From: Gammaproteobacteria bacterium
Lineage (GTDB): Bacteria; Pseudomonadota; Gammaproteobacteria; JAQSXL01
Direction: 5' to 3'
NCBI GenBank assembly: GCA_029256685.1
Contig: JAQSXL010000001.1
Coordinates: 1-40,071 of the forward strand
Length of the DNA stretch: 40,071 nt
Shown here: positions 1,939 through 18,090 of the stretch, in pieces
Numbering within the stretch: position 1 is the stretch's first letter
Layout of the letters: the number at the start of each line of letters is the position of its first letter
Program-made: the position numbers and the translations under genes
The notes under the pieces: model-generated
Databases searched by the model: none
Seen by the model: the letters and a program-made list of their open reading frames with translations, nothing else
What the model was told of the DNA's origin: nothing

Positions 1939-4900
1939 TTAAAGTTCTGGGGTTATATGATGTAATTTAGGTTGATAGTTGCTCCAGAAATCAATCCATT
2001 TATTGTTGAAGGAGCCTGGCTCTATCGCATTCACCGCATTGATAACATCTGGGTGATAAACACTAAACGGTGAAACTTGATATTTACTTAGTGCAAACTG
2101 ATGAGCTTCAATATAGTTCATCCCTTTTGACATTTTAGTTGCCTCTGTAACCTCATGTATATAAAAACTAGCATCTGCACCAGTCACGGTCTTCCCAGAT
2201 CGTAATGCTTCATTTAGCCTTAATAACATTAATTCATTCTCTTTTACTGGACCAAATTTAGATAAGTGTTGAGTTACGAGGTCTAAGCCTTTTTGTGATA
2301 TACGAACAGCACTATTGGTAAGCTTACCTAACCCTTCGCCATCTGAGATACTTGTACTTAAATAGGCACCTGTTTTTTCTATACTGCTAAACAACCGAGG
2401 CCCAACCAATTTTATACCACCGGCTAAGCCACCGGGCATTACTAAATCAAACCCCACCTCCATAGCAGTTGTGCCAATATTATCCAGACCAAACTCATGC
2501 GCCGCTCGACCAAACGCAGTGGTCTCAGCTTCACCTGTCCATAAACATTTTAAGCCCGTTTCTATATGGTCAAGCCCTCTCAGCGCTGTGACGCCCCCCA
2601 CAGCAAGCCCTACACCAGTTTCAATCGTCAATATACCAAAACCAACTCCAGCAGCTGTTTGTACAACTCCGCCTATGACTTCAGCGCCTGCAAATATCCG
2701 ATTAGTAAAAGCTGCCCTTTTATTCGATGGTGACAAATCACTATTTTGTGAAGTTGCATAGATAGATTTATTTGATGCTGTCCAGATCATCTTACCTTCA
2801 TCTAGCATAGCCATTACATCATCGGACCTAATGGGTGTTAACAAACTCTCCTCATCAGGACTCTGCGTTATAAAGCCGTTATCCGTATCGGCCAACGCCT
2901 TAGCTTTTAGACTCTCCTTACTAAACCGCTGATTGAATAAAGTCGGCTGTTTAGCTTTCCGGTTGACTACTTGGCTTGATTGAGCCTGTGCTTCTCTGCG
3001 GGTCATGGTAGACTCGGGTTGGCGACGCAAAGTATGATAGGCATTTAATTGCTCAACAATAGGCGTTGCTAGCTTAATTCCTATCGCAGTACCTAGCGCT
3101 TGGGCGGCTATCAACTCTATATTAGGCTCGTGCTGTTGCATCACGCTGTCTACCATGCCTTGCACCAAGGGCTGGCTAATCGGCTGAGCGAGTTTATTCG
3201 TGATATTCAGCTCGTAGTTTAATATCTGGCCGCTTATCGCCGCCAAGACTTCACCAAAGTCAAAGTGCGGACTTAAACCCAGCGCTAGCTTGCTCAGCTG
3301 CTCCAGTATTACCACCTTGCCTACGCGGGATAGCTTCTCTGCAAGCTCAAGCCGCTCTCCCAGCTTAAGTTTATCTAAGCCTTGGACATCTAGCCCCGAG
3401 TTTAAACCGGCACTGGCCGCGCCCATGGCCATGTTGGAAAACGAAAACTGGTGTTGAGCCCCTAACCCTATCAACACCCCTTGGCTGGCCGCACTGGCCA
3501 ACGCACCTAGCGCCGCCGCCCTAAGTGCGTTAGTCATCACCGCTGCACCTTGTACCTGTGCCAACGCCGGCACCAAGACTGGCATGAAGTAGGCTATCAC
3601 TACCGTTATCACCACCTGAATCACAATCCCTAAAAAGCTGCTCCAAAAACCACCGTCAGGCTGGGGTGTTTCCAAGTGTGGATACAGATGTTCCAAAATG
3701 GTATTTAAAAATACCTGGTAGGCTATGTGATTACCCGCCCCATTGTGCATGGGGATTAAGGGCGGTACATTTAAAGCCAACCCCGGTGTCGGGGTCTCAT
3801 CCGCCCGCAAGCCATTGGCTTCTGCCAATAAACTCGCATAGCTATTGTCTCCATACACCTGCTGCGCTATACCACTAAAACTATCTCCTTCCATCACCAC
3901 ATAGCGCGTGACTCCCGTCCCTGTTCCAAGCTCGCTCACCCGCTGAATAAAATCCACCAGCTTCAATCGTCCCATCGCTTGCGGCAGTAAGTCTTTCGCC
4001 TTATAGTGCAAGACGGGTAAATGCCGTTGGTTATGAAGATACTGTTTAGGCTGAGGCATGTGCACCTCACTGGCTCGCCGCTTAGCTAATCTTATCAAAT
4101 CGGCCCATACTCGGTAACTGTTGCCATCCCACGGGTCCTTAGTGATTTCATAAGCGCCTATAGGCGCGCCATTCACTGTATAAAAATAATGGTGTTCCTT
4201 GATCCGGGGCGTCTCTTGCCAAATATTGTTGGTTTTGTTCGGCTGTAATATCTGCTTCTTAAATACCAAACCGTCCGAAGCCGCTTGGTATAGCACAACC
4301 TCTTGCGTTTTATTATCCTCAGCATAAACCCCAAGATTCGCATTTTGTGCCCCATTTGCATCATACAGCAATTGTGCTTGGTTATAGGGACTTGAATCAC
4401 CGTCACGTTCACGCCGTCCCCAGGTCTTGGTTAATTGTAGGCTGTCAAAACGAGCGTACTCATTATTCAGATAATCCCAAAAATCCACATCCTTTGTAAA
4501 ATAGTAGCTTACCTGTTGCTGCGGCTGACCGCTCGCCGTGAAGATCTTAAATACGCTAGAGCTTACCTTATTTTTATGATAGCCAAAAAAGCTATCCTCC
4601 CCCTCTTCTTGGTAATCATCAACTAGCCATTGGTTGGCGTTATAAACTAGCTTATGCTCCTTAATGCTTGCCACTTTAAGATAATCCATAACCTTGAGAT
4701 CAACCGCTTTAGAGTAGTAACGCTTTAGCAATCCCGATGAATAATACTCTCTTAAAGTGGTAGTTTGTAAAGGCAAATCAAGCAGAGTCGTGCTTAACTT
4801 ACCCTCATCATCATAGCCTATTAAGGTTTTTTTATAGGTCCAGTCTTTGTCGTATTCCTCTTCGCTAACCCGTACATCCCACTGGTAATTCAGTTTCTTG

Positions 4901-17800: not shown

Positions 17801-18090
17801 AACAAATACAGTAAAGCGCGCTGTATTCCATCGTCTCTAGTTAAACGGTAGATAAAATTTTGGTAAAAACTGATAAGCCGCCCACGTTTATGATATGACT
17901 TGTTTTCGTGGTTGAGACTGTCAGAAACATTTATGTCATATACTGACGTAAGCAATGTTTCCTCAACGTTAATAATAGGCAACAGCCGCTCATGCTCAGC
18001 TTCCTGATTAGGAAACTTTTTTTTCAGCTGTGCATTTAATTGATTACGAAACTCTACATCATATATTTTTTTCATGCTAAACGACCTCAT
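14806..18090 (-). CDS. Membrane-anchored leucine-rich-repeat protein, ribonuclease-inhibitor/NLR-type LRRs (eukaryote-like)
   Basis: 1094-aa ORF with about 14 tandem 27-29-aa repeats, e.g. LESINLSRNNIGDNGIAELAMAF, LSELDLSYSDITDNGVAQLERYL, LTYLDLSHNVIGARGTEWLGKKL. The N-terminal ~480 aa has hydrophobic stretches. The C-terminal anchor is WPLGFILGSLSLLGGIVALVYLMY. The stop lies 21 nt before the YD gene start. Confidence 0.9.
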   Translation of the reverse strand: MRSFSMKKIYDVEFRNQLNAQLKKKFPNQEAEHERLLPIINVEETLLTSVYDINVSDSLNHENKSYHKRGRLISFYQNFIYRLTRDDGIQRALLYLFMSDSNLQKQTDNATSRLKRYWPSHTSARLNHPEIPFLLTKAVTGARLITDNAWPLTLLGLLSYDLHRYQNEPEQRYGNTLHGLWLGGLWPGSNLNLSTLSRHLGSGVIHDGWSYWLGISLAMVTPLLAGLTYSLIHSYRFNVPQITKLQATVDYLAKLEPSFWSNTLAWLWPFSGTAYQVLAAERALLWRNKIASKTQKDLLAGMQDLAQRHGGLTQLAAIRSLAKLTDHKQPIDENPPHTHGSICSPLSMLQMIAEDRDRRHLVRYYAHYQLWTLGESNNPWVHLWWLPPTLAWSGYVLYAKLRLGETLVQKMVTAIQTLHEAHLCHTSGKVWAYQPERADYVCGVCPDWNFVPQSQINHSQGCVDGLLATERDSHDLLRLMDRVLKPPFFTDLDLSQQSWTSWPVNDWQTLLAKLANSSLPKLQVINLSQPALRPPQVDKLQLLNRFLQQTPVQHLDLSRQHLGAQQLQSLLQELPPTVKQLNLADNLLGDEGAAVLSKYLPGLSLESINLSRNNIGDNGIAELAMAFSQTGLTKLDLSANQFGALGLSYLTECMPNTVLTELNLSYNDLSLANLQEWGAAVANSSLIRLALRQTQLYAEQLEAWAPQLGISGLQKLDLAYNPFSDEGLKHLLMASCHNDLSELDLSYSDITDNGVAQLERYLIDTRWTHLSLSGNQLGLNGLLSLAQGLNGSELEHLTLANMELGDVAVLAFAEVLNATSHRLSGLNLAHNQLSGGAALALLASLPTQLTRLELQHNRLDDAFATYLADSLSQRKSLTYLDLSHNVIGARGTEWLGKKLDDATGLTRLRLAQNPIGATGGKSLASFLISRGPFSIELGKLSLSQDARRAIAKTRTQTTLTELDLTGCELDDSAALALCRVQPYTHIPFAALGLAENSLKLIDAGNCRSRSNLQRSGFFKPAPSTQRLAQSQTQINQTDWPLGFILGSLSLLGGIVALVYLMYRVANRYAARSSNLASPIIQAEELEFERPSRLF

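Follow-up and report, generated by a model that had tools for sequence, protein, structure and literature searches.

Conserved pairing of a predicted leucine-rich repeat membrane protein with a giant YD-repeat toxin of the polymorphic type

A 40,071-nucleotide (nt) stretch of DNA from a Gammaproteobacteria bacterium (contig JAQSXL010000001.1; the whole stretch is called the window below) was analyzed with respect to two adjacent genes on its minus strand, which encode a 1094-residue (aa) protein with leucine-rich repeats (LRRs) of the ribonuclease-inhibitor (RI) type and a 4281-aa protein built of YD repeats, respectively. The results showed that the two genes form a pair which is conserved at high divergence in many uncultured Coxiella/Legionella-like bacteria and which in one locus is fused into a single reading frame. 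The YD repeats, a swappable tip, an immunity gene and an orphan cassette mark the locus as a polymorphic Rhs/YD toxin system. Within this system the LRR protein represents a previously unnamed partner family and probably a new mode of trafficking. The best reading of the locus is one predicted operon, which encodes the LRR protein, the giant YD toxin and an immunity protein, with one or more orphan toxin cassettes behind it. The two genes and their spacer are located in the window as follows.

14806..18090, minus strand: LRR partner gene, 1094 aa from the ATG (open reading frame (ORF) list and translation)
1939..14784, minus strand: giant YD-repeat toxin gene, 4281 aa, GTG start (ORF; RHS_repeat E 8e-58)
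14785..14805, minus strand: spacer between the LRR and YD genes, 21 nt, holding the GGAGG ribosome-binding site of the YD gene at 14794-14798

Conserved pairing of the LRR and YD genes

The preliminary description of this DNA had taken the LRR protein for the dedicated neighbor of a giant YD toxin in no described system, and a gene-neighborhood survey was set beforehand as the test which could refute this. Neighborhoods were taken from LRR family members spread over a neighbor-joining tree, and only loci with visible downstream DNA were used; alignment-based pattern scans gave one GTDB genome locus and two JGI loci, and the contig of family member P0057, which stops right after the gene, gave no information on its downstream neighbor. 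The survey came out positive: a giant orthologous YD gene lies directly after the LRR gene in 10/10 loci examined of the window's clade (the window and nine others, listed below by locus and LRR family member), one of them a fusion. No LRR-YD pairing in Legionellales or elsewhere was found in the literature searched, and the proposal was thus upheld on both counts.

L006: P0001, 68% identical to the window LRR protein; thioesterase upstream as in the window; YD gene after a gap of 21 nt
L010: P0002; YD gene after a gap of 73 nt
L011/L012: P0003; YD protein of 4121 aa, gap of 21 nt
L008: P0039; YD gene overlaps the LRR gene
L009: ~P0019; YD gene overlaps the LRR gene
L018: P0030; YD protein of 4320 aa
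L019: P0028; YD protein of 4951 aa, overlap of 37 nt
L020/L021: P0044; YD protein of 4641 aa with OTU domain
L007: P0074; LRR and YD fused in one reading frame of 5214 aa

The LRR-YD junctions ranged from -37 to +73 nt across the orthologous loci. Most inter-locus identities were 22-35% for the LRR protein and 27-44% for the N-terminal 560 aa of the YD protein (eight of the nine two-gene loci, the fusion being left out), and the L006 orthologue was nearer to the window with 68% and 80% identity, respectively. The pairwise divergences of the LRR and YD proteins correlate with each other (Spearman 0.65-0.68). The genes upstream of the pair vary by locus and include a thioesterase, MFS, a two-component system, a P-type ATPase and others, while the LRR-YD pair itself stays constant, and there is no other conserved neighbor. 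The combination by which a new partner family is recognized here, namely an N-domain with four Cys, RI-type LRRs, a C-terminal transmembrane helix and an adjoining YD gene that bears the N-terminal motif described below, was found across the 10/10 loci.

In the fused locus (L007; JGI 3300054682, Ga0556632_002893), N-domain, LRR and YD parts follow one another in frame, with the tail and anchor of the LRR protein deleted and the join lying exactly at the YD N-terminal motif. In the fused protein the LRR module thereby takes up the position that the trafficking domain has in polymorphic toxins (PMC3482391). The same locus has a frameshift in the N-domain at 1521-1596, so that a 279-aa ORF (719-1558) covers the first half of the N-domain and is followed by the 5214-aa ORF; this frameshift may be a sequencing error, the mark of a decaying gene or programmed frameshifting.

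The distantly related loci L008 (1218-7787) and L009 (1033-6004) have a common upstream block before the LRR-YD pair, consisting of a ~450-aa protein, a PAS histidine kinase with an N-terminal PQ-loop and a response-regulator-like protein, to which L008 adds a LuxR-type regulator. This block could regulate the LRR-YD module in that lineage.

In the window, both ORFs were found on the minus strand at the positions given in the preliminary description, and its 21-nt spacer was confirmed, with 9 nt between GGAGG (14798-14794) and GTG (14784-14782) as read from the sequence. The junction is TTA TTT TAG tgctattGGAGGactatcaac GTG, where TAG is the LRR stop codon (14808-14806). Judged from the sequence, co-transcription of the two genes is likely. 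Terminator-like sites were in slight excess in the window (28 versus 19.4 by chance, standard deviation 5.7), none of them convincing within the operon, and promoter-like sites were not in excess (35 versus 35.7 by chance). A weak 7-bp hairpin (14829-14813, minus strand), followed by ATTTTAG, overlaps the LRR stop codon and could modulate the ratio of LRR to YD product; its folding was no better than that of shuffled sequence (z 0.79).

A sister clade and the possibility of an independent effector

The sister clade of the LRR family differs in its neighborhoods, its members standing alone in the 3/3 cases visible (P0105/L014, L005 and P0033/L022). They have more LRRs and sometimes Sel1 repeats, and one of them lies on a 697-kb chromosome of a metagenome-assembled genome (MAG), another on a 660-kb contig. 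On the former (L005, 1-13153; OZ257147.1, Gammaproteobacteria MAG), five LRR genes stand in tandem, family members of 1434 and 1487 aa being interleaved with three small pure LRR_6 proteins (433, 360 and 499 aa) whose N-termini are near-identical to one another. The array suggests that the stand-alone clade has expanded in a reduced genome.

These stand-alone members, with their tandem expansion beside small LRR_6 proteins, agree with a different account of the window protein, in which it would be an independent eukaryote-directed effector, tail-anchored in host membranes and merely sharing a promoter with the YD toxin. RI-type LRRs are generally typical of host-interaction proteins in intracellular bacteria, the C-terminal helix is placed as tail anchors are, and the window holds a gene for a U-box protein and an elongation factor P (EF-P) whose nearest structure, PDB 3TRE, is presumably from Coxiella burnetii. 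We nevertheless hold this account to be quite improbable, given that the adjacency persists in 10/10 loci down to ~25% identity with junctions overlapping or very short, that an in-frame LRR-YD fusion exists, that the pair is constant despite varying upstream neighbors, and that the YD N-terminus has no trafficking module of its own.

The LRR partner protein and its family

The LRR protein consists of three main parts.

16531..17703, minus strand: conserved N-domain, aa ~130-520, ~390 aa; unnamed family
15061..16533, minus strand: solenoid of RI-type LRRs with a Cys-containing C-terminal cap, aa ~520-1010 (Pfam and ~27-aa register)
14905..14973, minus strand: C-terminal transmembrane anchor, aa ~1040-1062, with a basic/acidic tail of 32 aa after it

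The LRR_6 family was matched with E 3.3e-34 (114.6 bits versus a cut-off of 23.4 in Pfam), and LRR_4/LRR_1 were matched as well. Tandem RI-type repeats (27-29 aa, LxxLxLxxNxIgdxGaxxLa) stand in register over 16-17 units of ~27 aa, which revises the earlier count of ~14 LRRs. The true start of the protein is probably the second ATG (Met6 at 18075), because a GAGG precedes it and the 68%-identical orthologue P0001 begins there.

The hydrophobicity profile of the protein shows a strong helix at aa 1043-1061 (Kyte-Doolittle hydropathy (KD) 2.24) and a weaker one at aa 214-232. An equivalent of the former was found ~43 aa from the C-terminus in 88 family members, with a K/R value of 1.94 after the helix versus 0.57 before it, so that the C-terminal anchor proposed earlier was borne out. 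The N-terminal hydrophobic stretches proposed along with it are likewise present, but their hydrophobicity across the family is merely moderate (mean KD 0.8-1.3). In the N-domain there are three moderately hydrophobic helices, and two of the N-domain helices are weakly hydrophobic; the C-terminal anchor is the sole transmembrane helix that can be predicted securely.

The N-terminal 518 aa, used as the query of an index-free HMMER search, gave an N-domain family of 182 cluster representatives at E<=1e-3 and 123 at E<=1e-10, nearly all of 900-1500 aa, in which the commonest architecture is a variable N-terminus, the ~390-aa conserved domain, RI-type LRRs and a helix ~43 residues from the C-terminus. 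The invariant residues of the N-domain (alignment A1) are a Pro, an Asp, a Gly, four Cys (C...CxxC...C) and a Trp, of which the Pro, Asp and Gly are located in or near the hydrophobic helices. The AlphaFold2 model of the domain (predicted local distance difference test (pLDDT) 80) is all-helical with a HEAT/ARM-like middle, apart from a small beta hairpin at the CxxC which carries the four Cys. A Foldseek comparison of this fold with the PDB gave no match at E<0.1 and just weak HEAT/ARM-like ones. The N-domain had no Pfam or PDB sequence match, nor did anything consistent emerge when 17 members were scanned with Pfam and the PDB was searched by profile. In line with the preliminary description, the LRR protein had no match to a family of defined unrelated role by Pfam, PDB sequence, PDB fold or PDB profile. 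Word-indexed homologue searches with the LRR N-terminus, the YD C-terminus and the family profile returned nothing, the contig index held no copy of the exact LRR protein, and a cluster look-up of family members gave no names.

As to topology, the K/R distribution fits four spans with the LRR part on the far side of the membrane, in which case the four Cys could form disulfides. A cytoplasmic, zinc-binding and tail-anchored form of the protein would be equally possible.

Architecture of the giant YD protein

The features of the YD protein upstream of its tip are as follows.

14680..14784, minus strand: conserved YD N-terminal motif (alignment A4, seven orthologues, plus three more)
5965..7584, minus strand: non-YD insert inside the repeat region, aa ~2400-2940
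3763..3903, minus strand: LysM domain (PF01476), aa 3628-3674, after the last YD repeats
3415..3651, minus strand: strongly hydrophobic helices, aa ~3712-3790, ~80 residues, KD up to 2.66; the corresponding region of P0074 aligns
2575..2697, minus strand: glycine-rich hydrophobic 'pre-toxin' stretch, aa ~4030-4070, KD 1.5-1.8, read from the sequence

Multiple YD/RHS repeats were found in the protein (PF05593 E 7.8e-58, TIGR01643 E 7e-32), spanning aa ~155-2180 and ~2950-3250 with the non-YD insert in between, and there were matches to YD_repeat_2x and a partial one to the RHS_core model, the latter limited to repeat positions 432-627. Its PDB sequence matches include the Rhs effectors 7q97 and 8cp6. 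The insert, which the preliminary description had called FN3 modules, had no RHS_repeat or other Pfam match (aa 2401-2850) and no PDB sequence match to back that assignment; it is possibly made up of beta-sandwich modules. The RHS-associated core with the self-cleavage motif PxxxxDPxG(L)...DPxG(L) was not found, there was no Rhs_assc_core match (NCBIfam), and every DPxG falls within an ordinary repeat, both in the window YD protein and in P0074.

At its N-terminus the protein carries the motif [YF]P[YF]xx[IV]xGxGxG..SS..Q, followed by FGQ..ANVANGNL at the start of the shell, which begins at about residue 35. No signal peptide, PAAR, VgrG/TcA-related or other N-terminal trafficking domain was found in the YD protein, and the motif is a candidate docking peptide for the LRR partner. 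The absence of the usual neighbors of such toxins, which had been remarked on earlier, was also confirmed, with no VgrG, PAAR, Eag/DUF1795, TcA or SpvB in any ORF of the 40-kb window (Pfam, NCBIfam); PAAR/prePAAR, VgrG and Eag were also not found in L011, L018 and L020.

After the repeats follow, in order, LysM, the hydrophobic helices, an amphipathic stretch, the glycine-rich hydrophobic stretch and a ~130-aa tip, and the same order is seen in P0074 at 26-28% identity, with LysM kept. The LysM match was scored at E 5.8e-4 in the whole protein (20.2 bits, cut-off 20.9) and at E 2.2e-5 in the fragment aa 3400-3720 (24.7 bits, above the cut-off).

The conserved N-terminal motif of a YD protein that is otherwise signal-less also bears on the idea that the LRR protein is an export adaptor or translocase, whose N-domain and C-terminal helices would form a membrane assembly that recognizes the YD motif and moves the YD protein across the inner membrane or hands it to a secretion system encoded elsewhere. 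The invariant Pro, Asp and Gly in or near the hydrophobic helices, a K/R distribution which fits a four-helix topology with the LRR part on the trans side, the LysM domain with its suggestion of peptidoglycan exposure, and the lack of any other conserved neighbor able to provide export are all in keeping with it. The N-domain helices, however, are merely moderately hydrophobic, no ATPase or channel-like fold was seen (the Foldseek matches being just the weak HEAT/ARM-like ones), and passage of a ~480-kDa beta-rich shell through a small helical assembly is without precedent, for which reasons such a role appears rather doubtful.

Toxin tip, immunity gene and orphan cassette

The downstream end of the locus, which carries the tip of the YD protein, has the following features.

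1942..2340, minus strand: C-terminal toxin tip, aa ~4149-4281 (tblastn, alignment A5, low-depth model)
1391..1927, minus strand: candidate cognate immunity gene, 178 aa, 11 nt past the YD stop, with its own GGAG site
725-1126 and 268-708, minus strand: two small ORFs of 36% GC between the immunity gene and the orphan cassette, 133 aa (glycine-zipper-like) and 146 aa (hydrophobic), respectively
1..213, minus strand: first part of an orphan toxin cassette, whose open frame lacks an upstream YD gene and runs off the window

In a tblastn search of plasmids, the tip matched an orphan toxin fragment on the Methylosinus trichosporium plasmid pOB3b3 with 51% identity (E 1e-28). Pyocin_S-domain proteins of Arsenophonus apicola and Rouxiella badensis were matched as well, their C-termini sharing 27-39% identity with the last ~120 aa of the tip. 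In both cases a small ORF comes next, annotated as 'immunity protein' in Arsenophonus and 'hypothetical protein' in Rouxiella. The tip is thus common to unrelated delivery scaffolds, and in the orthologous YD protein of L020 an OTU domain is found instead, as expected of a variable tip. The invariant H, N, R, D, Y, H-E..E and H of the tip (alignment A5) suggest that it is an enzyme. It had no Pfam or PDB sequence match; a model from two sequences is all-alpha (pLDDT 65, core ~80) and gave no PDB fold match.

Immediately downstream of the toxin fragment, Methylosinus has an ORF that shares 31% identity with the ORF at 1391-1927 (E 2e-13, pairwise) and was also the sole match of the latter among 72,556 plasmids (E 1e-7). 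The assignment as an immunity gene is based on this co-occurring homology alone, and because the tip and the neighboring ORF travel together, which is the signature of a toxin-immunity pair, the ORF is likely the immunity gene. The ORF downstream of the fused gene in L007 showed no homology to it.

On pOB3b3 (L015; Methylosinus trichosporium OB3b, 83819-92163), the tip is matched best by sequence that extends a 73-aa 'hypothetical protein' and carries no annotation itself, set among insertion sequence (IS) elements, Imm26 and truncated RHS-core genes. The plasmid is alphaproteobacterial, and the cluster has the look of a graveyard of orphan toxin and immunity genes. In L020/L021 (from 5584; Logan SRR33155352, SRR33155354), the 4641-aa YD protein has a precomputed OTU match (PF02338), and this payload is possibly a deubiquitinase or papain-like peptidase.

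The orphan cassette was recognized by a direct repeat of 199 nt in an open frame (9-207 versus 2866-3064, 95% identity), which copies YD codons ~3908-3973; the tip of the orphan lies beyond the window. This is the classic orphan-cassette arrangement, which permits tip swapping by recombination. The ORFs at 725-1126 and 268-708 may be orphan-associated immunity genes; neither had a Pfam or NCBIfam match, and the 133-aa ORF also had no plasmid match. In the same region (268-1390, minus strand), a short low-GC open frame without a family match ends at 1146 (...EHFGQRIERLSVIEKYNRYSVYARNGAVRVIDYQ*) and looks like the tail of a decayed coding sequence. On its predicted features, the YD protein is a genuine though non-canonical polymorphic toxin.

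The pairing of a toxin with an LRR protein raises the matter of whether the latter could be an inhibitor, chaperone or immunity factor, in the style of Imm-LRR or ribonuclease inhibitor, which keeps the toxin inactive in the producer. RI-type LRRs are known in general as classic tight enzyme inhibitors, and a class of immunity proteins with LRRs has been described from polymorphic toxin loci (PMC3482391). This role is highly unlikely. The LRR gene lies upstream of the toxin and not downstream, its product stays orthologous between loci whose tips are of different types (pyocin-type here, OTU in L020), and it is another ORF, located downstream, that co-varies with the tip. The LRR protein is moreover large (1094 aa), with a membrane anchor and a conserved domain besides the repeats, and the fusion joins the LRR part to the N-terminal end, ~4,400 residues before the tip. 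Identification as an Imm-LRR immunity protein was rejected on the upstream gene position, the orthology across different tips and the fusion to the toxin N-terminus in L007.

Proposed role of the LRR protein

Polymorphic toxins are built of a trafficking module, a repeat scaffold, a pre-toxin part and a tip (PMC3482391). Because the YD protein lacks only the trafficking part of this series and a fused relative has the LRR module in its place, the LRR protein is read as the detached N-terminal subunit of the toxin, for anchoring or trafficking; it would be held in the membrane, dock the YD N-terminus and tether the cocoon. We favor this explanation, with confidence only a little above even. According to it, the YD toxin would have lost, or never had, an N-terminal trafficking module, and the LRR protein would supply one as a separate polypeptide, with its C-terminal helix, and perhaps the hydrophobic N-domain helices too, holding it in the membrane. 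The LRR solenoid would bind the conserved YD N-terminal peptide or the first turns of the shell, and the LRR protein would tether or position the cocoon at the cell envelope and possibly add target recognition. The hydrophobic segments after the shell, presumably encapsulated in it, are likely a device for the tip to cross the target membrane, and the 178-aa protein would protect the producer and its kin. The immunity gene and the pyocin-type tip indicate that the toxin can kill bacteria including kin, which would make bacteria its probable target here, and the OTU-bearing orthologue leaves host-directed payloads in other lineages possible.

Several observations weigh against the LRR protein being a detached subunit of the toxin. 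The members of the sister clade have no YD neighbor, so that the LRR family can work unpartnered. The fusion stands on a single metagenomic contig that carries the N-domain frameshift, and an assembly artefact or a decaying gene is possible there. The three N-domain helices are too weakly hydrophobic for confident membrane spans. RI-type LRRs and a nearby U-box gene fit host-directed effectors, and the OTU domain in one orthologous YD protein perhaps indicates eukaryotic rather than bacterial targets. In addition, the binding between the LRR and YD proteins, the co-transcription of their genes and the location of both proteins are inferred from the sequences.

A bolder form of the detached-subunit explanation, which we put forward as speculative and consider unlikely as a whole, is that the LRR protein and the YD cocoon make up a self-contained display and delivery apparatus needing no secretion system, in intracellular Coxiella/Legionella-like bacteria. 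In such an apparatus the partner in the envelope would hold the cocoon outward by its N-terminus, in a split teneurin topology, the solenoid would select the target cell, and the helices in or behind the shell would carry interchangeable tips (pyocin-type, OTU) across the target membrane. If this is true, polymorphic toxins would gain a new trafficking class, and the pairing of a YD shell with an LRR transmembrane protein would have a bacterial precedent.

Comparison with known systems

The window YD protein resembles classical Rhs/YD toxins (RhsA of Pseudomonas protegens, PDB 7q97; Tse5, PDB 8cp6) in its YD/RHS shell, variable tip, immunity gene directly downstream and orphan cassette with a homologous recombination stretch. 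It differs from them in having no PAAR/prePAAR, no VgrG/Eag neighbors and no RHS core self-cleavage motif, in being three times larger, and in its LysM and hydrophobic helices between shell and tip and its LRR partner upstream. Assignment as a Rhs effector of a type VI secretion system (T6SS) was rejected because the YD protein and all ORFs of the 40-kb window yielded no PAAR/prePAAR, VgrG or Eag (DUF1795).

With Tc (ABC) toxins, in which a TcB-TcC cocoon sits on a TcA injector, the locus shares a partner subunit encoded beside the YD cocoon, the occurrence of subunits split or fused, and the lack of a classical signal peptide. The partner here, however, is a 1094-aa LRR membrane protein versus ~2500 aa for TcA, and no SpvB/TcB N-terminal domains, beta-propeller or aspartyl protease core were found. 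A Tc toxin was therefore also rejected, on the absence of a TcA partner, of TcB N-terminal/SpvB domains and of a beta-propeller (Pfam, NCBIfam) and on the identity of the partner as an LRR protein.

Like metazoan teneurins, the window YD protein is a giant shell without the self-cleavage motif, whereas bacterial teneurin-like proteins self-cleave. The fused form follows a teneurin-like order, with an N-terminal membrane-associated module, extracellular-type repeats, YD shell and tip, and teneurins work alongside the LRR transmembrane protein FLRT (PMC6978801), which is an analogy only. Unlike in teneurins, the FN-plug, NHL and TIP domains were not detected in the window YD protein (no NHL/FN-plug Pfam match), its similarity to the teneurin-type structures 9ifo and 9pt5 is a generic YD-repeat similarity only (E 1e-3), and the precomputed TEN_YD-shell matches in the YD orthologues are faint or weak. 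Bacterial teneurin-like proteins have an FN-plug + NHL + YD-shell superfold, usually with a TIP domain, and mostly use Sec signals or lipoprotein anchors and retain the Rhs cleavage motif (PMC13018210).

The mosquito protein SGS1 is a giant YD protein acquired from Wolbachia-type endosymbionts, with predicted transmembrane helices hidden inside the cocoon (PMC9935623). As in SGS1, the window YD protein exceeds 3000 aa, has no signal peptide, carries non-YD domains in mid-shell and has hydrophobic helices after the shell. SGS1 differs in keeping an aspartyl protease site and in having no LRR partner, pyocin-type tip or immunity gene, and it was not among the PDB sequence matches of the window YD protein. 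The likeness to S-type pyocins concerns the toxin tip only, the delivery part being a YD shell and not the pyocin receptor-binding and translocation domains. Imm-LRR proteins (PMC3482391) share with the window the encoding of an LRR protein beside a polymorphic toxin, and the LRR partner is unlike them in lying upstream, in its size, in having a further domain and a membrane anchor, in staying constant while the tips change, and in its fusion to the toxin N-terminus.

Genomic setting

The locus is compositionally mosaic, since the LRR and YD genes have 46-49% GC, the flanks ~41% and the toxin-tip/immunity end 36%. The housekeeping flanks encode a thioesterase, epmB, efp, a PIN toxin, epmA, an amino-acid permease, psd, ychF, pth, L25, ackA and pta; the window further encodes a single U-box protein of eukaryotic type together with an IS transposase, and no tRNA genes were found in it. 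The solved structure nearest to its EF-P is PDB 3TRE, which we take to be C. burnetii EF-P, and an identical EF-P was found on short JGI and Logan metagenome contigs where the order efp-PIN-epmA is retained. The host is probably an uncultured Coxiella/Legionella-like gammaproteobacterium.

The PIN-domain toxin gene (20385-20807, minus strand) sits between efp and epmA, and on the metagenome contig L001 a small Phd/YefM-type antitoxin gene was called just upstream of it (L001 1553-1792). The U-box E3-ligase domain (PF04564, E 4e-13, aa 574-643) is part of a 678-aa ORF at 32147-34183 (minus strand), which lies in a low-GC stretch (37%). U-box domains are typical of effectors from intracellular Legionella/Coxiella-like bacteria.

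Significance

Rhs/YD toxins are sorted by their mode of exit and targeting, those of the T6SS depending on PAAR/VgrG, Tc toxins on TcA, and others being Sec-dependent and wall-associated or teneurin-like. A YD clade that has no T6SS, Tc, Sec or teneurin-like modules and keeps one membrane LRR protein down to ~25% identity indicates an undescribed mode of trafficking or anchoring, and gives a first functional context for ~180 sequence clusters known only from metagenomes. The uncharacterized tip family common to S-type pyocins comes with a ready, predicted toxin/immunity pair. The known relatives of Coxiella/Legionella-like bacteria are host-dependent. Polymorphic toxin loci are considered rare in endosymbionts (PMC3482391). 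The present locus indicates that Coxiella/Legionella-like bacteria carry fully equipped polymorphic toxin loci including immunity genes and orphan cassettes, which is of relevance to the fields of both polymorphic toxins and Legionellales effectors.

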